Of a stretch of 64,000 nucleotides of DNA, positions 2,068-58,868 are shown piece by piece; position 1 is the first letter of the stretch, and each line of letters opens with the position of its first letter. Source of the DNA: Syntrophaceae bacterium (GTDB lineage: Bacteria; Desulfobacterota; Syntrophia; Syntrophales; Smithellaceae). Under the pieces are notes generated by a model. The model had not been told where the DNA came from and ran no database searches. It saw only the letters and a list, made by a program, of their open reading frames with translations. Both the position numbers and the translations under genes were made by a program. The stretch is from contig PLGI01000198.1 in the NCBI GenBank assembly GCA_003139775.1, positions 964-64,963 of the forward strand. The letters are read 5' to 3'.

Positions 2068-2388
2068 CTAATTATTTCCAAACTGGATTATCATTGCGCC
2101 ACAAATAATAATCATCAACCCGACCCAAGTTGTGTATGGTATATTCTCTCTAAATACAAAACGGCCGAATAATATGCTTATCATTGCAAAGATTGCCACA
2201 TAGACTCCGAGCAGTTTTGAAAAATCCCATTTGACCGTGTTGACAAGTACGCCATAGGAACCCAGTATAGCGCACCCTATCAATATGACAGCTACGTTTT
2301 TTCCGCGCAATCCCTTACGGACAATCGCATCACCGCTAACCTCTAATATTGCTGCACCAATGAAAATAAGCCAAACCCAATATGTCAT
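2068..2388 (-). CDS. Small 4-TM membrane protein, UPF0060/YnfA-like (SMR/DMT-like)
   Basis: 106 aa, four hydrophobic segments. Pattern ILEVSGDAIVRKGLRG...YGVLVN...VYVAIFAMISILFG...GLMIIICGAMIIQ resembles the YnfA family. Start overlaps the nifV stop. Confidence 0.6.
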   Translation of the reverse strand: MTYWVWLIFIGAAILEVSGDAIVRKGLRGKNVAVILIGCAILGSYGVLVNTVKWDFSKLLGVYVAIFAMISILFGRFVFRENIPYTTWVGLMIIICGAMIIQFGNN

Positions 2389-3569
2389 ATTTGCTCCTCA
2401 TTTTTTTTGACAATGGCGTCCAAATAAGCAGCGGATATATTTTTACAGTGAACGGCCACTTCCTTGAACTGGGTCATAATGTCATCCAGTTGTTTTTCGT
2501 TAACTACATAACCGATTTTTTCAATATAACTTCGGATAGCATGACGGCCGGAATGCTTCCCGAGGACGAACCGGCTCTCCGGTATGCCTACCGATTGGGG
2601 TGTCATGATTTCATAGGTTTGCGTATTTTTAAGTAAGCCATCCTGATGGATGCCCGCTTCATGGGCAAAAGCATTAGCTCCCACGATAGCCTTGTTAGGC
2701 TGAACAGAAATTCCGGTGATTTCCGTCAGGAGTTGGGACGTCTTGTATATCTGCTCCATTTTGATCCTCGTCTGCACGTCGAAATGGTCGTTTCTTGTCT
2801 TTAAGGCCATGACCACTTCTTCCAGCGCGGCGTTGCCTGCCCGTTCACCGATACCGTTGATGGTGCATTTTACCTGGCTTACGCCCTGTTCCACAGCGGC
2901 CAGAGTATTGGCCACAGCAAGGCCAAGATCGTCATGGCAATGGATGGAAAGAATATGATCGCCGATATTTCCGGTGCGCTCAAAGATGTAGCTGATCAAC
3001 TCACCGAATTCAGAAGGAATGGCATAACCCACCGTATCGGCAACATTGACGATCTTTGCGCCCGCATCGATGGCCACCTCCAGAAGCCGGCAAAGAAAAT
3101 CCTTGTCCGTTCTTGTTGCGTCCATGGGCGAAAACTCGATGTTGTCCGTATAGGTTCGGGCATAGGCTACGGACATTTTTGTTATTTCCATTATTTCCTG
3201 CCGACTTTTTCTTAACTGATATTTAAGCAGAATATCGGAAGCCGGAAGAATAATATGGATGCGGGGAACAGCCGCTTCCCGGATGGCCTCCCATGTCCGG
3301 TCGATGTCGGTGGTTCTTGCTCTGGCGATGGCGGCGATCTGGCAACCTCTGATTTTCCGGGCTATCTGACGAACGGCGGTGAATTCTCCCGCGGAGGAGA
3401 CAGGAAATCCCGCTTCAATAATGTCCACGCCCAGTATTTCCAGTTGCCGCGCTAAGCGAAGCTTTTCGTCAGGCATCATGCCGGCGCCGGGTGACTGTTC
3501 TCCATCCCGCAAGGTCGTATCATATATAAAAATTCTTTTCCCCGGCATGGCTCTCTCCATACGGATCAT
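2385..3569 (-). CDS. nifV: Homocitrate synthase (NifV; LeuA/HMGL-like fold)
   Basis: [17 protein letters not shown]... [17 protein letters not shown]... typical of the isopropylmalate/homocitrate synthase family, ~390 aa, in a nif cluster. Start may be the ATGA-overlapped 3569 or the internal Met at 3548. Confidence 0.8.
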
Positions 3570-4057
3570 GTTAATTTTTTATTGATGGCGTCCAGTTTTC
3601 CGTAGAGTGCGGTCATCCGGCTCGTCACAAGGCCTGCCTGCCGGTAAAACATCAGTGCCCCGATATTTGTGACGTCGGCAACGAGTTGAATACGATGGGC
3701 ACCTTGCCCGGAACCCCAGACAATGACCTGTTCCAAAAGCTTTGTTCCGATACCTTTACGCCGGAATCCGGAAGCGACATACATGTCTTCCAGTAAAATC
3801 GAGTATCCGCCGCTGGATGTCGAGACGACGATCTGCGCTGTAACCATACCCACAACCTTGCCCGCCGCTTCGGCAATATAAATGGTCCCGGCATGCTGGT
3901 CCACAAGTAGAAGTTGCAGGCCGACCCTATTTTTATCAGCATCTATGGCAAAGTCTTTTTCAAGCTCAAAAAGATGATGGAGAAAAGTAACCATCGTCTG
4001 GATATCTCCGGGCTCTCCTTTCCTTATGCGAATATTCTTCATAGTTTCAATCCCCAT
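3566..4057 (-). CDS. GNAT-family N-acetyltransferase
   Basis: 163 aa with acetyl-CoA motif A (VASGFRRKGIGTKLLE). Confidence 0.8.
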   Translation of the reverse strand: MGIETMKNIRIRKGEPGDIQTMVTFLHHLFELEKDFAIDADKNRVGLQLLLVDQHAGTIYIAEAAGKVVGMVTAQIVVSTSSGGYSILLEDMYVASGFRRKGIGTKLLEQVIVWGSGQGAHRIQLVADVTNIGALMFYRQAGLVTSRMTALYGKLDAINKKLT

Positions 4058-19336: not shown

Positions 19337-20569
19337 CTATTCAATCACGGTATAAGCGGCTTCGCTTTGTTGAGTCAAATCCAGGCCGACGAGTTCATTT
19401 TTCTCTTCAACCCTCATGCCGATAAGAGCATCGACAATCTTGAAGATTATGAAGGTCATGATTACAGCAAAGGCGACTGTGGCTAAAAGCGATAAAGATT
19501 GAACCACAAGCTGATGCGCATTGCCGAAAAGAAGACCGTTCGCGCCTGCCGCATTGACGGCTTTTTCCGCAAATAGTCCTGTGGCTATCGTTCCGACAGT
19601 TCCACCAACACCATGCACGCCGAACGCGTCCAGAGAGTCGTCGTAGCCCAGTTTGCCTTTAATGACAGCAACAGCAATATAACAAACAAAAGCAACAATC
19701 ATGCCTATAAACAACGCGTTCATCGGGTTGACAAAACCGCAGGCCGGTGTGATCGCGACAAGTCCGGCCACAGCTCCGGTAACCGTTCCCAGAATAGTTG
19801 GTGTTCCATTGTGCCACCATTCAATGAGCGCCCAGGTTAGTCCCGCTGCGGCTGTTGCCGTATTGGTGGTGACAAAAGCGTTGGCTGCTAAGCCATCGGC
19901 AGCCAACGCGCTACCCGCATTAAAACCAAACCAGCCGAACCACAAGAGTGCTCCACCCAGAACAGCAAACGGCAGATTATGCGGACGAATAGGCCCGTAA
20001 TTTAATCCAACTCTCTTTCCCAGCAACAAAGCCAAAACCAGAGCCGAAACTCCTGAGCTGATATGGACAACCATACCACCGGCAAAATCAAGCGCGCCCA
20101 GATTTTTCAGCCAGCCGCCTGTTCCCCAAACCCAATGCGCCAGAGGATCATAAACAAAAGTCGCCCAGAGAATAGTAAAGAGCAGGAAGGCCGGAAATTT
20201 CACTCTTTCCGCATAAGCGCCGATAATTAAAGCCGGTGTAATAACGGCGAACATCATTTGAAAGGCCATAAAAACACTGTGCGGTATAGTAGCGGCGTAA
20301 TCCTTATTCGGCAAGGAACCTACACCGTTTAGGCCTGCCCAACTCAAATTGCCTATTAGTCCGTGAAAATCGGGGCCGAAGGCCAGAGAGTAACCGAACA
20401 AAACCCACTGCAAACTGATTACGCACAAAATAATAAAGCATTGCATTAAAATAGAAAGAACGTTCTTCCGGCGAACGAGTCCCCCGTAAAAAAATGCCAA
20501 GCCCGGCATGGTCATCAGCAATACCAGCGCCGTGGACATCAAAACCCATGCTGTATCTCCTGAATTCAT
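19337..20569 (-). CDS. amtB: Ammonium transporter
   Basis: Amt/MEP signature sequence (DFAGGMVVHISSG, FGWFGFNAGSA). Start trimmed to MNSGDTAWVL (GAGGAGG RBS) at 20569. Confidence 0.95.
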   Translation of the reverse strand: MNSGDTAWVLMSTALVLLMTMPGLAFFYGGLVRRKNVLSILMQCFIILCVISLQWVLFGYSLAFGPDFHGLIGNLSWAGLNGVGSLPNKDYAATIPHSVFMAFQMMFAVITPALIIGAYAERVKFPAFLLFTILWATFVYDPLAHWVWGTGGWLKNLGALDFAGGMVVHISSGVSALVLALLLGKRVGLNYGPIRPHNLPFAVLGGALLWFGWFGFNAGSALAADGLAANAFVTTNTATAAAGLTWALIEWWHNGTPTILGTVTGAVAGLVAITPACGFVNPMNALFIGMIVAFVCYIAVAVIKGKLGYDDSLDAFGVHGVGGTVGTIATGLFAEKAVNAAGANGLLFGNAHQLVVQSLSLLATVAFAVIMTFIIFKIVDALIGMRVEEKNELVGLDLTQQSEAAYTVIE

Positions 20570-20597
20570 TTTTAATACCTCCTCGAAAATTTTTTTT

Positions 20598-20826
20598 ATG
20601 AGACTCAAATTTAATGAAACTCAGATATTACAAACGCCGTGCAGTAATATCTGCAAGTTGAATTATCCCGCCAAAGGCGGAGAGTAATGAAACCCAAGCT
20701 TCAGAAACGAAGTGCATAACCTAAAGGTCATCTGCGACTGAAGCTTGCAGGTTGAATTATCCTGCATAAGCAAGAGTTGAATAACCCAAAGCTTGCTTTG
20801 GGGTTTCATACCCGTGGCTTTCGACT
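20598..20826 (-). repeat. Family-1 hairpin-linker mosaic repeat, copy A-left (forms the amtB leader)
   Basis: Alternating linker words (GGATAATTCAAC.., GGGTTTCATTAC.., GAGTCTCAT) separated by perfect hairpins, e.g. 20623..20652, 20669..20679, 20696..20746, 20786..20801. Confidence 0.8.
20716..20730 (+). repeat. 15-nt core ATAACCTAAAGGTCA, copy 1 (inside a family-1 hairpin loop)
   Basis: Exact 15-mer. The loop is 21 nt longer than in the paralogous units at 20632..20643 and 21603..21614. Confidence 0.7.
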
Positions 20827-20834
20827 ATACTTAA

Positions 20835-20851
20835 GGCAAGGACAGTGCCAA
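20835..20851 (-). promoter_or_regulatory. sigma-54 promoter of amtB-glnK
   Basis: Minus-strand reading TTGGCACTGTCCTTGCC = TGGCAC-N5-TTGC, a full consensus match. Confidence 0.75.
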
Positions 20852-20932
20852 AATAAAACTTATCGCCGAAATTACCGAAATAACTGATGAATTGATGATA
20901 AACCAAGTTGCGCGATTGGAACAATTTTGTGT

Positions 20933-20970
20933 AAAGATAAGAAATAACCAACCAAAATGTAAAGGAATAC
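20933..20970 (-). promoter_or_regulatory. Degenerate copy of the nifH/permease enhancer-like element
   Basis: TAACC (20945..20949)-N9-GTAAAGGAATAC (20959..20970), same orientation and a similar distance (~90-125 bp) from the sigma-54 promoter. Confidence 0.3.
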
Positions 20971-20995
20971 GCCCTTTATACTCTCTCTTCGGAAA

Positions 20996-21197
20996 AAATC
21001 ACGGGTATGAACCCCAAAGCAAGGTTTGGAAACAAATTTCGCAGCAAGCTGCGGGATTGTTTCCAATAAACCTTTGGTTATTGGATAATTCGACTACCAA
21101 ATTTCATTACGTTGCACTTATGAAATTTGAGTCTCATTACAAATTACCAATTCCGCTGCGCTTCGCTTTAGGAATTGGAGTTTCAACAATAAAAAAA
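20996..21197 (+). repeat. Family-1 mosaic repeat, copy A-right (inverted relative to A-left)
   Basis: AAATCACGGGTATGAACCCCAAAGCAAGGTTTGG ... GGATAATTCGAC ... GAGTCTCATTAC ... CCAATTCCGCTGCGCTTCGCTTTAGGAATTGGAGTTTCAACAATAAAAAAA. Both ends align to copy D. Confidence 0.8.
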
Positions 21198-21300
21198 CTG
21201 CTGAACTCTAACCTGACATGTGGTACAGGCATCGGAGGCAGATCAGATCCATTCGACATGTTTAATTAATTTCTTCAGACGCGAAAAAATAGTTCAACTT

Positions 21301-21480
21301 ATGAAAAAAATATTGAGAATAGGATTTATCGGTACTCTTCACATGACGGTTTACCTGTGGCTGCTGCCTTTCGTAATTCTACCGAAATTCGGAAATACAG
21401 GCACAAAAATCACAGTAACCATATTGATACTGGTTTCCCTGATTGTATTATCCAGTCTGTTTATTAAAAAAAGAAAGTAG
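21301..21480 (+). CDS. Possible small (59 aa) two-TM membrane protein
   Basis: MKKILRIGFIGTLHMTVYLWLLPFVILPKF...ILILVSLIVLSSLFIKKRK; no clear RBS and no recognisable family. Confidence 0.3.
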   Translation: MKKILRIGFIGTLHMTVYLWLLPFVILPKFGNTGTKITVTILILVSLIVLSSLFIKKRK

Positions 21481-21580
21481 AATCAGCGACTGAAAATAAA
21501 ATCAATGTGACAGTAATAATATAGCGCCGTGTTCCATCTGACAGCAGTTGGACAAATTTCCCATATTTTACCCACCGGAC

Positions 21581-21666
21581 TTTAATGAGACCCAAGTTTT
21601 AGAAACGCAGTGCACTGAAACTTGATGGTCGAATTATCCCGATTGCGTAGCGTATCGGGATTGGTC
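21581..21666 (-). repeat. Family-1 mosaic repeat, copy B (one X-hairpin-Y unit plus a short hairpin)
   Basis: TTTAATGAGACCC / AAGTTTTAG-AAACGCAGTGCA-CTGAAACTT / GATGGTCGAATTATCCC / GATTGCGTAGCGTATC / GGGATTGGTC. Confidence 0.75.
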
Positions 21667-21775
21667 TTTATTACCACAAAATACCCGGTAGGAAAAATTT
21701 ATTTATATTTGATTTTATGACACATTTTTCTCTTTTCATTTTTTTGAATTGATATAGGATTGCACAAAATACTCG

Positions 21776-21790
21776 TGACCTTTAGGTTAT
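21776..21790 (-). repeat. 15-nt core ATAACCTAAAGGTCA, copy 2
   Basis: Exact reverse complement TGACCTTTAGGTTAT, flanked by direct AAAATAC...AAAATAC. Confidence 0.7.
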
Positions 21791-21892
21791 CGGAAAATAC
21801 CCACTGGGTATATTAATTGTTATCTAAGAATGTCTTGACAGATATGCATAGATGATACATACTCAGACATCTTAATTGTATGAGGTGAAACT

Positions 21893-22087
21893 ATGAGAAC
21901 AACTTTGAATATCGAAGATAACCTGATGGACAAGGCATCCAAAATGACTGGGATCAAGGAAAAAACCGCACTCGTTAAGCTTGGGCTTGAGGCTCTTATT
22001 GCCAGAGAAAGTGGCAAGAGGCTTGCAAGGCTTGGTGGGACTCAAAAGCATTTGCAGGCAATACCAAGAAGAAAAGGAGCATTATAA
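21893..22087 (+). CDS. vapB: Type II antitoxin, VapB/DUF2191-like
   Basis: 64 aa; MRTTLNIEDNLMDKASKMTGIKEKTALVKLGLEALI is typical of antitoxins paired with PIN toxins. 3-nt gap to the PIN gene. Confidence 0.8.
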   Translation: MRTTLNIEDNLMDKASKMTGIKEKTALVKLGLEALIARESGKRLARLGGTQKHLQAIPRRKGAL

Positions 22088-22090
22088 GAA

Positions 22091-22456
22091 ATGGTGCTTG
22101 TGGATACATCGGTTTGGGTTTCACATTTGAGGGATGGAAATGCTGATCTTGCAAACCTGCTCAATAATGGAAGGGTACTATGCCACCCATTAATTGTAGG
22201 CGAACTTGCCTGCGGGAATCTCAAAGACAGAGCAGGCATCCTTTCGTTTTTGCAATTGCTGCCGATGAGCATCGAAGCCGAACATGATGAAGTATTGTCA
22301 TTTATAGAGAATAACCGTTTAATGGGAAAAGGGATGGGCTATGTTGATGTCCATCTTATTACATCCGCTGTATTAACGGGTGTACCTGTCTGGACACTGG
22401 ATAAGAAACTGGCGCAAGCTGCGGATAGCCTGTACATAAAATACATAAAAAAATAG
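22091..22456 (+). CDS. vapC: PIN-domain toxin VapC
   Basis: 121 aa; MVLVDTSVWVSHLR... with conserved acidic residues (DTSV, GEL, DVHL). Confidence 0.85.
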   Translation: MVLVDTSVWVSHLRDGNADLANLLNNGRVLCHPLIVGELACGNLKDRAGILSFLQLLPMSIEAEHDEVLSFIENNRLMGKGMGYVDVHLITSAVLTGVPVWTLDKKLAQAADSLYIKYIKK

Positions 22457-23743: not shown

Positions 23744-23909
23744 ATTTCAATTCCAAATCAAAGATGATATCGAGGCGGCGAGGAGTAGGCACCGGAGGCG
23801 TATAACCTAAAGGTCACACGTATGAAAATACGCTGAGGAAGCCGACGACCCAGGCATGCGCCGGGCAGGCTCCGCCAACAAAGATAGCGCTTTGAGTTGG
23901 GATTGAAAT
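23744..23909 (+). repeat. Family-2 interspersed element, copy C (with terminal inverted repeats)
   Basis: ATTTCAATTCCAAATCAAAG (23744..23763) vs reverse complement of CTTTGAGTTGGGATTGAAAT (23890..23909), 18/20 match. Core GAGGCGGCGAGGAGTAGGC..GGAGGCGTAT..ATACGCTGAGGAAGCCGACGAC..GCCAACAAAG. Confidence 0.75.
23802..23816 (+). repeat. 15-nt core ATAACCTAAAGGTCA, copy 3 (inside a family-2 hairpin loop)
   Basis: Exact 15-mer flanked by direct CGTAT...CGTAT. The family-2 copies at 54583.. and 57794.. lack it. Confidence 0.7.
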
Positions 23910-44588: not shown

Positions 44589-44789
44589 TTTATTGTTGAA
44601 ACTCCAATTCCGAATGCGAAGCATAGCGGAATTGGTAAGTTGAACAATCCCGCGCAGCGGAGGGTAATGAGACTCGCTGACCATAGGAAGCGTTTGTCGA
44701 ATTATACCGCATAAGCAGGTATTTAATACTCCCCAGCTTGCTGCTGAACCTGTTTCCAAAGCTTGCTTTGGGGTTTATACCCGTGATTT
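44589..44789 (-). repeat. Family-1 mosaic repeat, copy D
   Basis: The reverse complement aligns end to end with copy A-right (AAATCACGGGTATAAACCCCAAAGCAAGCTTTGGAAAC ... CCAATTCCGCTATGCTTCGCATTCGGAATTGGAGTTTCAACAATAAA). Confidence 0.8.
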
Positions 44790-46832: not shown

Positions 46833-46937
46833 ATCCTGCGAAGTTGCGGGGTATTAACCCCTCAGCTTCGCAGGATTGTTCAACTTACCAATTACGCTGC
46901 GCTACGCTTTCGGAATTGGAGTTTCAACAATAAAAAA
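46833..46937 (+). repeat. Family-1 mosaic repeat, copy E (3' half of the element)
   Basis: 11-bp stem ATCCTGCGAAG/CTTCGCAGGAT with a nested GGGG-TATTAA-CCCC, then ATTGTTCAAC TTACCAATTACGCTGCGCTACGCTTTCGGAATTGGAGTTTCAACAATAAAAAA. Confidence 0.75.
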
Positions 46938-47061: not shown

Positions 47062-48024
47062 TTGAAAACAAAAGAAATTTATCTCCAAGATATCAAACAG
47101 GGGGACAAGGTAGCTGGCACCTTTTTGGCTGCTGAAAAGAATATGGCCTTTTCTCTGAAAGGCTCTCCTTATCTGAACGTGCGCCTGAAGGATAAGACCG
47201 GCGAGCTCGATGGCAAGGTCTGGGATAACGCGATTGAATTAGATCAACAGTTTAAAAAAGGCGATGTAATCTATATTGAAGGAAAAGCCGCCAGTTATAA
47301 AAATTCAATTCAAATATCTATAATCAAAATTATAAAGAATGAATGGGAAGATGTCGAACCTGCCGACTATTTACCCGCAGCCAAAGGCGACGTTGCCGCC
47401 ATGTTTAATGAAATACTCATCTATGTTGAAAAAATGCAGACTAAACCACTGCAAGAATTGCTGCAATCTTTCTTTCATGATCAAAAAACCGCAGAACTTT
47501 TTCAAAGAGCGCCTGCGGCAAAAGGTTTTCATCATATTTATTTAGGCGGACTTCTGGAACATACACTCTCTGTTGTACGCTTATTGGAAAAAGTATCCGA
47601 ACATTACCCAACCCTCAACAAAGACATGGTTATTACCGGTGGTATACTTCATGATATCGGCAAAATATACGAATTTTCTTATGACCACATAATTGATTAC
47701 AGCGATGAAGGAAGATTAATCGGCCACATTATTATGGGCGTGGAAATGATCGATAAAAAAATTGCCGCTATTGATGGTTTTCCTCCGCAATTAGCACTGG
47801 AATTACGCCATATTATTTTAAGTCATCACGGAGAATTTGAATTCGGTTCTCCTAAACGCCCGAAAACCCTGGAAGCTTTGGTCGTCCATTATATTGATGA
47901 TCTGGATGCCAAGTTTAACGCATTTCAAACATTAATTACTGATTCTACCAATGCCGATTCCGATTGGACAAACTACAACCGCCTTTTGGAGCGTTTTATT
48001 TATAAGGGTAAACCACGGGTATGA
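47062..48024 (+). CDS. OB-fold plus HD-domain nuclease (YhaM-like 3'-5' exoribonuclease)
   Basis: 320 aa, TTG start; OB-fold N-terminus, HD motif (GGLLEHTLSV...LHDIGK). Confidence 0.7.
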   Translation: MKTKEIYLQDIKQGDKVAGTFLAAEKNMAFSLKGSPYLNVRLKDKTGELDGKVWDNAIELDQQFKKGDVIYIEGKAASYKNSIQISIIKIIKNEWEDVEPADYLPAAKGDVAAMFNEILIYVEKMQTKPLQELLQSFFHDQKTAELFQRAPAAKGFHHIYLGGLLEHTLSVVRLLEKVSEHYPTLNKDMVITGGILHDIGKIYEFSYDHIIDYSDEGRLIGHIIMGVEMIDKKIAAIDGFPPQLALELRHIILSHHGEFEFGSPKRPKTLEALVVHYIDDLDAKFNAFQTLITDSTNADSDWTNYNRLLERFIYKGKPRV

Positions 48025-48192
48025 ACTCCACAGCAAGCGGCGGGGTTCATGCTTTCCGCTTCGCGGGATAATTTCCAATAGTTTTTAGCTATTGGATAGT
48101 TCGACTTACAAATTTCATTACGCTACGCTTATAAAATTTGAGTCTCACTACAACTAACGCTTTCTATAGTCAGCGAGTCTCATTAAATTTGA
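48014..48192 (+). repeat. Family-1 mosaic repeat, copy F
   Basis: CACGGGTATGAAC... GGATAGTTCGAC ... CAAATTTCAT-loop-ATAAAATTTG AGTCTCACTAC ... AACGCTTTCTATAGTCAGCGAGTCTCATTAAATTTGA. The first 11 nt overlap the upstream gene's stop codon. Confidence 0.8.
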
Positions 48193-53160: not shown

Positions 53161-53190
53161 CGCTTGTCCTTAAAATCAAAAATATTATTG

Positions 53191-53330
53191 TAATCCCAAA
53201 GCAAGTTTTGGAACCCGATTCCGTTTCAGCGAATTTCAAATCCCACGTCGCTTCACTCCTGGGATAATTCGACTAACGCTTCAAACTTCATCCCGACTCG
53301 TCGGGATTCGTTTTCAGCGAGTCTCATTAA
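53191..53330 (+). repeat. Family-1 mosaic repeat, copy G
   Basis: CCCAAAGCAAGTTTTGG ... CCCA-loop-TGGGATAATTCGAC TAACGCTTC ... TCCCGACTCGTCGGGA TTCGTTTTCAGCGAGTCTCATTAA. Confidence 0.75.
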
Positions 53331-54582: not shown

Positions 54583-54685
54583 GCATTCAAAGGATAACGC
54601 GACGGCAAGGAGGAGGCTCCGCAGGCGTATTATTAATACGTTGAGGAAGCCGACGACGCAGCCAACAAAGTTAGCCAAAGAATGC
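54583..54685 (+). repeat. Family-2 interspersed element, copy H
   Basis: GCATTC...GACGGCAAGGAGGAGGCTCCGCAGGCGTATTATTAATACGTTGAGGAAGCCGACGACGCAGCCAACAAAG...GAATGC. Confidence 0.75.
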
Positions 54686-54708
54686 GACTTGGTATAAGAT
54701 GGTTTGTG

Positions 54709-55623
54709 ATGACCATTCAAGCCCTTCTCGACCTCTACAAGTCCTGCACGCTTTGTCCGCGCGCCTGCCGGGTTGACCGGACAAAAGGCGAATTGGGCTA
54801 TTGCCGTCTGCCTGCCGATATAGTCATGGATTGCGCTCTGGCCCATCACGGAGAGGAGCCGCCTCTTTCCGGAACGCGCGGAGCCGGGACAATTTTCCTT
54901 TCTTCCTGCAACCTGGGTTGCATCTATTGCCAGAATTATCAGATTTCTCACAGCGCACAGGGGCGTAATCTGACTGTATTGCAACTGGCAAAGGTCATGC
55001 TGGATCTCCAGAAAAGCGGCTGTCACAATGTTGAGCCGGTCACCCCGACGCCGCAAGCTCCTCTGGTGATAGAGGCTCTGTGCATGGCGCGCATGCAGGG
55101 ACTTACGGTGCCGTTTGTTTATAATTGCGGCGGCTATGAAAATCCTGATGTTATTCGTTTGCTAGACGGCATGGTGGATATTTATCTGCCGGATTTTAAA
55201 TACAGTTTGGAAAAAGATTCTGTGGAGTTTTCTTCCGCGCCGGGATATCCCCGTTTCGCGTTGGATTCGTTAAAAGAAATGGTGAAGCAGGTCGGCGACG
55301 GTCTGGAATTAAAAAACGGCGTAGCTCAAAAAGGAATAATTATTCGCCATTTAGTTTTACCCGGCAGGATAGAAAATTCTAAAGAAGCTTTAAGGCTGAT
55401 CAAAAAGAAAATATCCACGTCGGTTTTCTTAAGCCTCATGTCTCAATACACTCCGGTTGCCAAAGTGCGCAATCATCCAATTTTGAAACGCAGAATCACT
55501 AAGAATGAATACGAGCAAGTCACGGATTATGCTCTGAAGTTAGGTTTCGATAATATTTTTGTTCAGGAAGTCAACGACTACGAACTGACTCCGGATTTTG
55601 ACCAAGAAAATCCCTTTGATTAA
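54709..55623 (+). CDS. Radical SAM protein, PflX/pyruvate-formate-lyase-activase-like
   Basis: CNLGCIYCQN (CX3CX2C) plus an N-terminal CTLCPRAC cluster. Start moved from 54682 to Met 54709 because 54682 lies within repeat H; uncertain. Confidence 0.75.
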   Translation: MTIQALLDLYKSCTLCPRACRVDRTKGELGYCRLPADIVMDCALAHHGEEPPLSGTRGAGTIFLSSCNLGCIYCQNYQISHSAQGRNLTVLQLAKVMLDLQKSGCHNVEPVTPTPQAPLVIEALCMARMQGLTVPFVYNCGGYENPDVIRLLDGMVDIYLPDFKYSLEKDSVEFSSAPGYPRFALDSLKEMVKQVGDGLELKNGVAQKGIIIRHLVLPGRIENSKEALRLIKKKISTSVFLSLMSQYTPVAKVRNHPILKRRITKNEYEQVTDYALKLGFDNIFVQEVNDYELTPDFDQENPFD

Positions 55624-55636
55624 TTGATACCAATTC

Positions 55637-55768
55637 GCATTCATTCGTCTACCTTTGTTGGCATCGTCATCGGCTTCTAGACGTATTGTACTATACGACT
55701 GCGTCGCCTCTTCCTCGCCGCCGCGGTATACTTTTGACTGCAAATCGGTATAAATTCTGCTTGAATGG
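55637..55768 (-). repeat. Family-2 interspersed element, copy I (inverted relative to H)
   Basis: Reverse complement reads CCATTC...CGGCGGCGAGGAAGAGGCGACGCAGTCGTATAGTACAATACGTCTAGAAGCCGATGACGATGCCAACAAAGG...GAATGAATGC. Confidence 0.75.
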
Positions 55769-55834
55769 ATAACACCTAAGCTTACTTGGAGCCATGCGTA
55801 AGCGCTGATCCAATACAGCAACTTGTTGGGCTTT

Positions 55835-56149
55835 TTATTTTCTTTCTTTGGGTTCTTCGTTTGCAGAGTTGAAACGCACTAATTTATCCCAATCGATTTC
55901 ACCAGTATCTTTGCAAAATACATTGGCAAATTCTTTAGTGAATTTATTAATCATTTGCGAATAAGATTCTATAAAAACATCATTCTTTTCCTTAGCTTTA
56001 TGTCCAAGTGGTTCAATAATCTCTGTAAAAAGATCAGCGTCACCGGAAATAAACTCCCAAAAACGCTGACCACAATACTTGAAATAATCACCTTTATCCG
56101 GTTTGCTGTCCCTTCCGTAACAACAACCATTTACAGCAACGATATTCAA
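55835..56149 (-). pseudogene. Probable C-terminal remnant of a restriction endonuclease gene
   Basis: 104 aa ORF with a TTG start and no RBS, in a very AT-rich islet downstream of a truncated methyltransferase. The family assignment is only a vague recollection. Confidence 0.3.
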
Positions 56150-56215
56150 TTTTGAGTTGCTGGTTCTCAGTGTCTTTTTTTGCAGTTTTAAAGTCTGCTA
56201 CCATTTTCGAGATGA

Positions 56216-56395
56216 TTATACTTTGAGTTTTTCATTTATTGAATTAGCAATTGCATCAAACCAATTTATCTTGTCAGCTATAGAATATTTTATTTTTTCA
56301 ATTTCTTCCGGCGTTAAATTTCTTTCTATCTCTTGAAGAGCCACCGTTTGAATATCTTCTTCATTGAGTGAATAAATGATTTTGCTACTTTTCAT
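56216..56395 (-). CDS. Small hypothetical protein (59 aa)
   Basis: Below the ORF-track cutoff. Hand translation MKSSKIIYSLNEEDIQTVALQEIERNLTPEEIEKIKYSIADKINWFDAIANSINEKLKV; GGAG box 7 nt upstream; 12 nt after the HNH gene stop. Confidence 0.4.
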   Translation of the reverse strand: MKSSKIIYSLNEEDIQTVALQEIERNLTPEEIEKIKYSIADKINWFDAIANSINEKLKV

Positions 56396-56407
56396 TTTTA
56401 AACTCCA

Positions 56408-57337
56408 TTACGTGAAAAATTTATTTTCACGATGCCAACTAATTGCATTTTGATGAGGGTAAATTTCTTTTCTTTTCGGAAGAAGCATTTTCGAATTTTT
56501 ATTGGATAATGCTCTGATGAAATCATAATCGCCCATTCTGCCAAAATCAGAAGGTAAAGAATTTACTTTTAGGGAAACTTGAATTTTATAATCATCTTGC
56601 AATGTGAACCATCCAGCATCAAAAGCCCAATGATGCAGATGACATAAAGACAACCCATTAAAAATATCATCTTTTCCTTTTTCACTATTAGGAACAATAT
56701 GTGCAGCTTCAACTTCCCACAATAAAGAATCTGGAGTTTTAATTTTCATACCACAAAAAGCACACTTGTAATCATATGCTTCTATCACCGCTTGACGAAA
56801 GCCTCTTGTTCTGATTGTTGATTCTCTGGTAACCTTTGCGACTTTCTTTTCTTTATCAAATGGATTATAATTTGCAGGTCGAGGTGTTTCAATAAGTTTC
56901 TTTACAATTTTTTGAACTTCAAAGGATTTTGTTGGAAGAAATTCTTTTTGTGTTTTAGGAATATTCAAAATCTTCAATGCCTCATCAAGGCCATTTTCAG
57001 TTAGCATCCATTCTTTCTTGTTTGTCAGAAGAATTGTTGATGTTGGTCTTGAAACCAAATTTTCTTTTGCTAACGAATCAGCAGCTCGATAGAGTAAACG
57101 ATGCCAAAGTGGTGTTTTTACAATTCTATTTTCTTTACGATAAATTCTTTCTAAAACAGCAGTCCTCTGATTTTTGTTTAAAATAAATTCATCAGCTATT
57201 TCATTTACGATTTCTTCACCAGTGGCAAACTCTTTTATTACACCATTATGTTTAAACAAAGTTTTCAGCAAAGCTTCTTCAACTTTCTTTCTCGATGGCA
57301 TAGCCAAATCTTTAAGCATTTTACCTTCGTAACTCAT
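56408..57337 (-). CDS. HNH endonuclease with N-terminal winged-helix-like region (restriction-type)
   Basis: CAFCG...EAAHIVP...LCHLHHWAFDAG HNH motif. Start set at the ATG forming an ATGA overlap with the stop of the methyltransferase fragment. Confidence 0.7.
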   Translation of the reverse strand: MSYEGKMLKDLAMPSRKKVEEALLKTLFKHNGVIKEFATGEEIVNEIADEFILNKNQRTAVLERIYRKENRIVKTPLWHRLLYRAADSLAKENLVSRPTSTILLTNKKEWMLTENGLDEALKILNIPKTQKEFLPTKSFEVQKIVKKLIETPRPANYNPFDKEKKVAKVTRESTIRTRGFRQAVIEAYDYKCAFCGMKIKTPDSLLWEVEAAHIVPNSEKGKDDIFNGLSLCHLHHWAFDAGWFTLQDDYKIQVSLKVNSLPSDFGRMGDYDFIRALSNKNSKMLLPKRKEIYPHQNAISWHRENKFFT

Positions 57338-57576
57338 ATAAACACTTTTTCCTTGATATTGAGAATAAAAGTTCCCGAAGGCTTGAGTACACGTAAAAGC
57401 TGTTCTGAAATAGGCAAAAACCATTTTACGTATTGATCAGGATGAATTCCACCATAGGTATTTTTTCGTTGGTCTGCATAAGGTGGTGATGTCACTATAA
57501 GATCAACAGAATTAGCCGGAAGTTGTTTTAAAACCTCTTTGCTATCTCCATGATATATATTTGAAGTTACTTCCAT
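57334..57576 (-). pseudogene. N-terminal 80-aa fragment of a beta-class N4/N6 DNA methyltransferase
   Basis: VDLIVTSPPYADQR (motif IV, D/SPPY) present. The SAM-binding motif I and the rest of the enzyme are absent. Confidence 0.7.
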
Positions 57577-57793
57577 TTTATTCTCATTTTTTTACTTATA
57601 CTTAAATATTTCTGTTAGAAATTATTTTATATATGCTGTCTAACATTTAATATTTCAAGTTAATATTTCCCAATTTCCGTCACATTCATACTCTTTTTCA
57701 TTTAGAATAAAAAGACAAAAATATGAATGACGGGGTTGTAAGAAACTCAATGTTCAGGGGCTGTTCAAAAATGTTCAGATGCAAGGCGCGCAA

Positions 57794-57857
57794 AAACTGA
57801 ACCGCGAGGCGTATTATACATACGTTGAGCGGTGCGGTTTGCAATGCAACGCCGCAG
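57794..57857 (+). repeat. Family-2 interspersed element, copy J (core only)
   Basis: AACCGCGAGGCGTATTATACATACGTTGAGCGGTGCGGTT, same central hairpin as C, H and I. Confidence 0.6.
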
Positions 57858-57878
57858 ATGAATTTTTTTCAACAGCAC

Positions 57879-58580
57879 CTATGGCATTTCGAAAATTTGG
57901 ACTCCCGCCGGAGGTTTGAATTGGAACATTTTTTGCGCCATTCCAGTGTTTACGGAAATATTGGAAAATTTCAGCGTCGTGGAGTTGCCCATAACATCAT
58001 CGAAGCTTATCTGCAGAATATAAAAATTATTTTTGTCAATTGTCAACTTGATTGAATTGCAGGCAGCCGTCTTTTCTCTGGGAATCAACACAAGCAGATA
58101 ATTGCCATCTTTGTCCTGAGCTTTGGGTTCGGCATATTTTATTACAAAATCATTTTTTAATTTTCCCGACCCGGAAAAAAAGTTAATCAGAAACTTCGAT
58201 TGAAAAATACTTTCCGACTTCTGCGTGTAGACAACCTTTTCCTTAGAAAGGTAAAGCCACGCTTTTTGACTGTTGATCACCAGTTTTTTGCCCTGTGGTT
58301 TTGTGTATTCCCAAAGCATGTTCTTTGGATTCTTAAAAAAAACTTTGCCTTCTTCCCTTTCTGTTTTCTTAATCGACTTAATGGTTGCTTCCTGAATGAA
58401 ATCAGCCTTCAGGTCTTTTGTTTTCTCATAAGAGCTCTGAATATTTTGGGCAATATCGCCAACCACTAGAAGTTCTTCGGAAAAAACACAACAAGGTAGA
58501 GATAGCAGTGATAAAATAAGGCAAAGACCAGCCCCCGTTGTCGTAAATAGCTTAATTATTTTAATAAATTTTTTTATCAT
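57879..58580 (-). CDS. lolA: Outer-membrane lipoprotein carrier protein LolA-like
   Basis: Signal peptide, then GKVFFKNPKNMLWEYTKPQGKKLVINSQKAWLY. Start trimmed to MIKKFIKII. Confidence 0.75.
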   Translation of the reverse strand: MIKKFIKIIKLFTTTGAGLCLILSLLSLPCCVFSEELLVVGDIAQNIQSSYEKTKDLKADFIQEATIKSIKKTEREEGKVFFKNPKNMLWEYTKPQGKKLVINSQKAWLYLSKEKVVYTQKSESIFQSKFLINFFSGSGKLKNDFVIKYAEPKAQDKDGNYLLVLIPREKTAACNSIKLTIDKNNFYILQISFDDVMGNSTTLKFSNISVNTGMAQKMFQFKPPAGVQIFEMP

Positions 58581-58838: not shown

Positions 58839-58868
58839 GGGGAAAATCAATCCCGCAACTTGAAATCC
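58839..58868 (-). repeat. Possible family-1 fragment
   Basis: Minus strand reads GGATTTCAAGTTGC GGGATTGATTTTCCCC, close to the linker word GGATAATTCAACTTGC. Confidence 0.3.

Follow-up and report, generated by a model that had tools for sequence, protein, structure and literature searches.

Hairpin-chain repeats beside amtB belong to a dispersed Smithella-clade family, probably of modular, gene-less mobile elements

What are the strongly folded repeats that stand in inverted orientation on either side of the amtB promoter in a Syntrophaceae bacterium, and do they belong to the control of that gene? The stretch analysed here, hereafter the window, comprises 64,000 nt of contig PLGI01000198.1, from a Smithella-like member of the Syntrophales; its genes include a nif cluster, amtB-glnB and ftsQAZ, two metagenome contigs are 100% identical over 21 kb, and its AmtB sequence is listed in 168 sample blocks. 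A first-pass annotation had proposed a family resembling repetitive extragenic palindromes (REPs), bacterial interspersed mosaic elements (BIMEs) or MITEs (miniature transposable elements with inverted repeats), or else a family of structured RNA modules. An interspersed, hairpin-rich mosaic family was indeed found, while the RNA alternative is disfavored by the evidence given below. The repeats form an interspersed, clade-specific and structurally constrained family. We give a probability of roughly 0.7 to the reading that they are modular, gene-less, non-autonomous mobile DNA elements specific to the Smithella/Smithellaceae clade (Syntrophales); that they are selfish or mobile interspersed repeats in the wider sense is very likely.

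The presence of an interspersed repeat family in the window was confirmed, as the seven main copies (A-left, A-right, B, D, E, F and G, Table 1), at intergenic loci, were recovered by a repeat search, a word scan and a covariance model of the long hairpin unit built from relatives. The window contains the word GRGTYTCATTA 7 times, where shuffles predict 0.15, and GGATWRTTCRAC 8 times, where 0.03 is expected, and the covariance model yielded 10 units with E ≤ 0.006, all within the seven loci. This corresponds to about one locus per 9 kb, with three copies on the minus and four on the plus strand. Folds of whole copies beat those of shuffled sequences with z-scores from -4.6 to -5.9 (-5.85 for A-right, which the repeat search also recovers in direct and inverted pairs). 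A possible eighth copy, listed earlier as a fragment at 58839-58868, is unsupported by the word scan with 2 mismatches and by the covariance model. The other loci had been placed correctly, with edges that shifted once boundaries were refined from empty-site comparisons and word positions: G is about 27 nt longer at its 5' side owing to a degenerate head, and the 8 nt GTCGAAAG (20818-20825), formerly counted in A-left, are native sequence that is also present at the empty site of a close relative (L153).

The family is not confined to the window. Scanning one genome per species with the pattern GGATAATTCRAC-N(15-45)-GRGTYTCATTA yielded more than 109 stretches in at least 33 assemblies, almost all of them named Smithella, Smithellaceae, Syntrophaceae or delta proteobacterium; four otherwise labelled contigs are suspected to be mis-binned (L052, for instance, shares blastn alignments of ~410 bp with three Smithella-clade loci). 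Smithella-clade loci totalling 744 kb, each pre-selected for at least one unit, gave 195 units with the covariance model, and amtB loci of other organisms (409 kb) gave 2 weak matches. Both weak matches are in one locus (L113, AmtB 66% identical; 524-582 and 2231-2296 (-)), where the doublet architecture described below is kept and the words have diverged (TAAATTCAGC...GGCTTCATTTA and ATGAGTTCAG...GGACTTCCCTCAT); judging from these units, the family or one that is sister to it may extend outside the Smithella clade. Units were further found on eight viral contigs, at low density and without informative genes. The comparison with Rfam that the first-pass annotation had called for returned no family: the whole window gave 0 matches at gathering threshold, and the region 20500-21800 gave three chance-level matches at a permissive E-value (E = 3.6-5.4), none of them relevant. 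An incomplete literature search on Smithella and Syntrophaceae repeats, on REPs and their associated tyrosine transposases (RAYTs) and on MITEs found no description of the family.

The interior of the repeats had been described as hairpins, each followed by a linker word. This grammar proved wrong, since consecutive words pair with each other and make up the two arms at the base of an extended hairpin. The partners are TAAT and ATTA, and GAC and GTC, separated by a 2x2 mismatch, and a second pair of words follows the same logic (ATTGTT-C-AAC ... GTT-TC-AACAAT in the fold of D, that is ATTGTT/AACAAT plus AAC/GTT). Word variants are matched as well, TTCAAC occurring with GTTTC and TTCGAC with GTCTC. 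The long unit is thus a 57-nt extended hairpin with the paired words at its base; its boundaries read GGA-TAAT-TC-GAC ... GTC-TC-ATTA, a 3-nt spacer before the stem is variable (TAA, CTG, CAT, TAG), and the gap between the words is exactly 34 nt in 109 of 127 X-Y units. Stems vary among units (CAAGCTTCAG, CAGATATTAC, CAAATTTCAT, CCAATTCCGC and others) yet always pair. Among 101 distinct 58-nt units from at least 33 Smithella-clade assemblies, standard pairs occupy 95.1% of cells, compared with 17-44% when the partners were slid, and both sides had changed in a compensatory manner in 303 cells. The word-word pair at columns 10-51, where the search pattern permitted all four combinations, is G-C in 79 units, A-U in 19 and G-U in 2, with a single unit unpaired. 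The non-Watson-Crick cells, distributed over many columns and units, comprise 44 A.C/C.A and only 11 G.T/T.G, an excess which suggests that wobble pairs are tolerated on the strand complementary to the orientation used in the first-pass annotation.

The pairing of the words also bears on a resemblance to the termini of CRISPR (short palindromic repeats that are clustered and regularly interspaced) that had been noted earlier. The words loosely resemble the 3' handle of type I-C CRISPR repeats (a hairpin, then ...ATTG..AAC), and on this ground we considered whether the repeats might be CRISPR-like arrays that are degenerate or orphaned, or else serve as substrates of a Cas6-type nuclease. The likeness is superficial and this reading is effectively refuted: words that pair with each other are not single-stranded CRISPR handles, a regular repeat-spacer periodicity is absent, stems vary with compensation, the units are scattered over hundreds of intergenic sites in housekeeping regions, each insertion is a discrete whole element, and no cas genes were seen near any copy among the neighboring genes. 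Hammerhead and other self-cleaving ribozymes, CsrA-titrating GGA RNAs, ToxI-type antitoxin repeats, the multicopy single-stranded DNA (msDNA) of retrons and tandem interspaced guide RNA (TIGR) arrays were dropped on anatomy alone, the search itself having covered only families represented in Rfam.

At the next level, hairpins are joined head-to-tail into a chain, which is the element. The chain may begin with a head (AATCACGGGTAT..., conserved from AAT on), continues with short ATCCC...GGGAT-type hairpins and one or more extended hairpins, and ends with ...G(A/G)GT(C/T)TCATTA or ...GGAGTTTCA(A/C). The commonest minimal form is a doublet of two hairpins, as in B, which recurs at many loci. In feature maps nearly all loci carry co-oriented H-X-Y-T chains, and inverted units are rare nested exceptions (e.g. 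L200, 5119-5176). This architecture is closest to that of the BOX elements of streptococci, composite repeats of the form boxA-boxB(n)-boxC (Croucher et al. 2011, PMC3049150). In both, conserved 5' and 3' terminal modules surround a variable number and choice of co-oriented internal modules; both are intergenic, strongly folded, often near gene starts and variable between related genomes, and both have related families with different module sets in sister taxa. In contrast to BOX, whose ends are terminal inverted repeats resembling those of ISSpn2, the ends of the Smithella family are mutually unrelated and no insertion sequence (IS) partner is known; moreover, every Smithella module is a hairpin, junction words pair across modules, and headless and doublet forms insert too. 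Similarity to BOX in sequence is lacking, the Smithella family being restricted to its clade.

A smaller module was found within these chains. The mini-hairpin TG(A/C)CCTT(T/C)AGG(T/G)TA measures 14 nt, or 18-21 nt with its variable lead, and has 52 strict matches in ~1 Mb, 25 of which are located in apical loops of long hairpins of the present family, all co-oriented with the host unit. Its positions 3 and 12 covary (A-T 42, C-G 9). One copy is nested in one of the two long hairpins of A-left, further examples are L041 (~3895-3945, minus strand) and L072 (~5369), and the module also occurs stand-alone, self-nested, as three tandem copies with a period of 18, and at the apex of a second repeat family. 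A second palindromic family (...GGAGGAGGCNCCGNAGGCGTAT-loop-ATACGNTGAGGAAGCCGACGAC...) is present in the window at 23760-23890, 54590-54680 and 55650-55735, with two inverted copies flanking a 313-aa radical-SAM open reading frame (ORF; 54682-55623), and has relatives in L076, L084 and L105. In addition, 55800-58000 is a low-GC island (GC 0.34 vs ~0.44 elsewhere) with an HNH endonuclease ORF (56408-57424, minus strand) and a fragment of an EcoO109I-type restriction endonuclease (55835-56149, minus strand); this is probably a decayed restriction-modification or mobile island.

Mobility is indicated by the comparison of filled and empty sites. Contigs encoding HD-domain proteins 90-93% identical to that of the window were compared at the sites of D, E, F and G. 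Together with the amtB locus, clean empty sites were found in close relatives for A-left, D, E and G. At the D site L200 reads ...ATATCA^AATAATTT (forward orientation, ^ marking the junction), where the window has GACATCA, the element (AATCACGGG...GGAGTTTCAAC) and then AATAAATT; D is also absent in L201 and L202. The E site is empty in L200 (GACGAT^AAAAAC) and in L202. For G, L201 has CCTTAA^ATAAATTTAC, compared with CCTTAA, the element (AATCAAAAA...GAGTCTCATTA) and ATAAATTTTC in the window. The F site is empty in L202, and in L200 it has both junctions of the window but ~400 nt of different modules between them, including one inverted unit. L201 and L202 (90-91% identity) contain zero units in 9 kb each, where the window has four elements. 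Three more filled/empty pairs were identified in other genomes (L085/L078, L006/L028 and L078/L085). Units are gained or lost as discrete pieces at ATAAA-like sites, with nesting and reshuffling at sites already occupied.

Some insertions touch the ends of neighboring genes. The TGA of the HD-domain gene (3'-5' exoribonuclease-like, 47062-48024) is located inside the head of F (48011-48024), while in the empty-site relative L202 the gene ends with its own TAA, so the F insertion replaced the last codons. Among the 32 anti-oriented cases there are 9 in which an ORF called on the opposite strand has its end in a TAA belonging to the terminal TAATGAGAC of the element, and insertions often abut or replace stop codons. 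In the same region L200 (HD protein 93% identical) retains only short remnants of selB between ruvX and the HD gene (3450-4000); an intact 637-aa selB is present in the window, L201 and L202.

The junctions show specificity on one side only. In ~7 informative filled/empty pairs the right flank is A-rich (CAATAAAC, AATAATTT, ATAAAAAC, ATAAATTT, AATTTGAT, AAAAAC and AAAATTAAT) and starts with (A)ATAAA or AAAAA, the element being located directly 5' of it. Likewise, N-AATAAA comes after the GGAGTTTCA-type tail ends, the frequencies over 48 of them being A.94, A.71, T.62, A.71, A.69 and A.58; ends of the ...CATTA type are followed by AAA and not AAT. Conservation on the left does not go past the AAT that belongs to the element. 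On the complementary strand the element comes after TTTAT^. Terminal inverted repeats were not found, as the 5' end AATCACGGGTATGAA is unrelated to the reverse-complemented 3' end (GTTGAAACTCCAA or TAATGAGACTC), and head and tail do not pair in folds of the copies. At A-left no target duplication was found when compared with the empty site of L153; at D, E, G and the L085 site (4 of ~6 junctions) the first AT or AAT of the element equals the start of the target, which may reflect a 2-3-bp duplication or simply the native first letters of the element next to an AATAAA target.

This last observation is compatible with a short duplication and, together with the small size, AT-richness and strong folding of the elements, would fit an ordinary MITE moved by a DDE transposase that duplicates 2-3 bp (AT/AAT) and has AATAAA as its target. 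We regard this as very unlikely. Head (CACGGGTATGAA) and reverse-complemented tail (GTTGAAACTCC) bear no relation to each other, A-left lacks a duplication, and ends in ...CATTA precede AAA instead of AAT. Furthermore, variant heads (AAC, TGC, GAC; few in number) are not matched by variant right flanks, which lends no support to a 3-bp AAT duplication, and no IS with these ends was seen in the loci sampled. Because headless copies exist, retro-insertion with 5' truncation was considered too and rejected: the 5' ends coincide with discrete boundaries between modules, either where ATCCC begins or where AATCACGGG begins, and are not random.

For amtB itself, A-left and A-right are in inverted orientation, as reported, and bracket ~180 bp with a sigma-54-type promoter of the form TTGGCAC-N4-TTGC and a conserved upstream block. 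The idea that pair and promoter form one unit did not hold. In the closest relatives, L153 (AmtB 89% identical) and L115 (87%), the promoter and the ribosome-binding site (RBS) are kept and the repeat is missing, and GGCAC-N5-TTGC is found at equal distance from amtB in the repeat-free loci L153, L115 and L112. The upstream block, a candidate activator-binding site of the amtB promoter, is kept in L153 and partly in L112, again upstream of repeat-free promoters. The empty site of L153 reads ...TTGCCTTAACAAAAGTCGAAAG^AAAAACTTTTTAAAGGAGG with the core GTCGAAAG^AAAAAC, compared with GTCGAAAG, the element (CCACGGGTATG...GAGTCTCAT) and the right flank AAAAAAAA / AAAAAAAATTTTCGAGGAGG in the window. 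With an empty site in L153 and the promoter kept without the repeat, A-left is an independent 221-bp insertion into the 5' leader, downstream of the promoter and between promoter and RBS; the leader assignment assumes a transcription start as predicted from the promoter position. A-left lies outside the conserved sigma-54 control region, and A-right and B are separate insertions nearby. The arrangement around the promoter is a coincidence of independent insertions. Just past B we noted a pair of genes for a VapB-like antitoxin and a PIN-domain (VapC-like) protein (21820-22456, Pfam).

A-left adds ~221 nt of strongly folded sequence to the amtB leader, which brings up the reading that the repeats are functional structured RNA modules, either cis-regulatory leaders or small RNAs, with A-left regulating translation of amtB or the stability of its mRNA. 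In its favor, structural covariation is strong, A-left is within the predicted leader, and the end of many copies lies directly ahead of the RBS, 10-40 nt upstream of a start codon. In transcripts, hairpins of this kind are moreover expected to affect mRNA stability, as REP, BOX and ERIC elements do (PMC3049150). Nevertheless we consider this reading quite unlikely. With genes called crudely as longest ORFs, tandem intergenic regions contain units about equally in both orientations relative to the flanking genes (33 co-oriented, 32 anti-oriented), in line with the earlier caveat that the apparent orientation bias in the window is not meaningful, and a further 19 units are in divergent regions and 14 in convergent ones. 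The element is missing from the amtB leaders of the nearest relatives, which keep promoter and RBS, and from four other sites in relatives, and module content at one locus varies between species. The wobble asymmetry favors the strand antisense to amtB in A-left, and no Rfam match was found. Copies inserted in transcribed regions will form part of mRNAs and may affect their stability or translation, such effects being a consequence of insertion and not the reason why the family exists.

Table 1. Coordinates of family members and associated features in the 64-kb window.
Feature	Position	Strand	Covariance-model matches	Description
A-left	20597-20817	-	20611-20668, 20686-20758	221-bp composite; head, 3 short and 2 long hairpins
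A-right	20997-21187	+	21083-21140, 21141-21184	Full-length; head AATCACGGGTATGAA, internal hairpins, tail end GGAGTTTCAAC, then AATAAA
B	21583-21662	-	21582-21639 (76.5 bits)	Minimal doublet; short ATCCC...GGGAT hairpin, then one 57-nt long hairpin
D	44595-44788	-	44595-44650, 44664-44707	Full-length; divergent ruvX-selB intergenic region
E	46833-46929	+	46873-46928	Headless; one nested short hairpin and tail long hairpin; between selB and HD-domain gene
F	48011-48185	+	48094-48151	Headed; overlaps end of HD-domain gene, whose stop codon is within the head
G	53164-53329	+	53262-53330	Degenerate head; divergent region between aldehyde-dehydrogenase-family gene and 355-aa ORF
Mini-hairpin TGACCTTTAGGTTA	20717-20730	-		Apical loop of A-left long hairpin
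Mini-hairpin	21776-21789	+		Other window copy
Mini-hairpin	23803-23816	-		Other window copy
amtB sigma-54-type -24/-12 promoter (TTGGCACTGTCCTTGCC)	20835-20851	-		Read from sequence; not a family member
Conserved upstream block (ACAAAATTGTTCCAATCGCGCAACT)	20903-20932	-		Candidate activator site for the amtB promoter

In their dynamics the repeats are closest to REPs, BIMEs and REPINs (REP doublets forming hairpins): these too are high-copy intergenic imperfect palindromes kept by compensatory change, without a clear target duplication, with mosaic organization, vertical persistence within a clade and several subfamilies per genome (PMC2817692, PMC3116915, PMC3733652). A genuine REP/REPIN-RAYT system, with the units as REPs moved by a single-copy RAYT and the chains as BIME-like clusters (PMC2817692, PMC3733652), is nonetheless unlikely. 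The GTAG/CGTC tag by which REPs are defined (PMC3733652) is absent from the foot of the unit on either strand, the bounds being TAAT..GAC and GTC..ATTA. Units are arranged head-to-tail, whereas REPs mostly form inverted dimers (head-to-head or tail-to-tail) and are rarely head-to-tail, and the mosaic lacks the alternating orientation of BIMEs, its 'linkers' being paired helix arms. The hairpins are longer and have several helices, with 10-bp stems and 12-nt loops plus basal helices, as compared with 8-9-bp stems and 4-5-nt loops in four CGTC REP families. A search of ~1 Mb gave no RAYT-like ORF, and none was seen by eye between inverted units.

The search for a mobilizing enzyme covered all ORFs of ≥60 aa in 111 loci and the window, as well as the eight viral contigs. 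Using phmmer with IS200 TnpA and E. coli RAYT queries, we found no match among 4686 ORFs (~0.98 Mb) nor in the viral contigs, a weak test given the queries and the ~1% of each genome that the loci sample. All-against-all clustering of the proteins encoded near repeats gave top clusters that look like housekeeping proteins by eye, from sequence alone and without a family search (e.g. an ABC ATPase, a sensor-type protein, an SDR and LeuA/LeuD). ORFs between inverted units, the arrangement known from RAYTs, likewise all look like housekeeping genes by eye, and a head...ORF...tail arrangement was found in none of the 111 loci. A precedent for abundant repeats without a dedicated transposase is given by the CGTC-type REPs (PMC3733652).

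Returning to the reading of the family as non-autonomous mobile DNA, we propose that whole chains and minimal two-hairpin doublets would be inserted as units immediately 5' of an ATAAA-like sequence, and that existing copies would gain further units through nesting. The conservation of hairpin shape over sequence by compensatory change, the tolerance of wobble on one strand and the single sequence-specific flank together suggest a trans-acting enzyme that would recognize folded single-stranded DNA. As inverted repeats and a clear duplication are missing, the target is one-sided and the strands are asymmetric, this step would best fit an HUH/Y1 transposase (IS200/IS605-RAYT type) whose substrate would be the complement of the strand in first-pass orientation, an assignment that we put forward tentatively and consider possible, if on the unlikely side. 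Elements of the IS200/IS605 group insert beside a short specific sequence. Their derivatives, such as palindrome-associated transposable elements (PATEs) and Nezha-type MITEs, have neither terminal inverted repeats nor target duplications, and have asymmetric ends with subterminal hairpins. This corresponds to the insertion anatomy seen here in ~7 filled/empty pairs and the 48 aligned tail ends, namely no inverted termini, no clear duplication and one specific flank. The short target on one side only (TTTAT^ on the complementary strand) and the apparent folding of one strand likewise resemble the 'peel and paste' single-strand mechanism. Different from that group are the internal modular chain and the nesting, which are atypical, and the failure to find TnpA in the loci searched.

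Several points weigh against the mobile-element reading or against its Y1 step. A search of Smithella-clade DNA (~1 Mb) and viral contigs (90 kb) turned up no transposase of any kind beside or between units. An element's two end hairpins are dissimilar, whereas IS200/IS605 ends usually resemble one another. The shared AT/AAT may leave room for a duplication of 2-3 bp, which would imply a different class of enzyme. The gene calls behind the orientation counts are crude. With regard to local GC skew, whose sign is a crude proxy for the replication strand, orientation was balanced (62:65 overall, and 19:27 at |skew| ≥ 0.06, not significant); as recent insertion of the IS200/IS605 type would predict a bias, its absence counts against the Y1 step. 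Finally, all comparisons are between species or metagenome-assembled genomes, and no transposition event was observed.

A likeness to the attC sites of integrons was noted as well. There too structure is maintained over sequence, the hairpins are imperfect with internal loops and one strand is seemingly preferred, and two of the words, ATTCAAC and GTTCAAC, agree with RYYYAAC, the inverse-core consensus. Unlike in attC, where a GTTRRRY core pairs over 7 bp, the 3' partner here pairs over only 3 bp before the 2x2 mismatch, and near the copies there are no cassettes, integrase or array context; they are scattered in housekeeping intergenic regions. It is also conceivable, but improbable, that the chains and the co-oriented mini-hairpins in their loops represent a new mode of DNA mobility, in which tiny hairpin modules are inserted into or appended to hairpins. 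Under such module-by-module growth, a structure-targeting enzyme unrelated to RAYT and TnpA, or a route through RNA or cDNA, would build the chains.

Taken as a mobile-element family, the repeats have their closest kin in three different systems, with the architecture of BOX, the dynamics of REP/BIME/REPIN and the insertion anatomy of IS200/IS605-derived elements, and they fall outside REPs, MITEs and CRISPR as these are defined. Unusual is the combination of co-oriented chains with pairing junctions, no inverted termini, no clear duplication, a one-sided ATAAA target, nesting and long persistence with compensatory evolution across a family-level clade; identifying the mover of the family could reveal a new partner enzyme. 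The repeats make up a noticeable share of the intergenic DNA in Smithella-type syntrophs and thus matter for annotation, as copies that go unrecognized will be misread as regulatory structures, small RNAs or CRISPR fragments. This risk is seen at the amtB locus, where repeats bracket a sigma-54 promoter that is repeat-free in relatives. Having supplied one stop codon, that of the HD-domain gene, and 221 nt of leader structure to amtB, the family is a source of regulatory variation in organisms that are not yet genetically manipulable.

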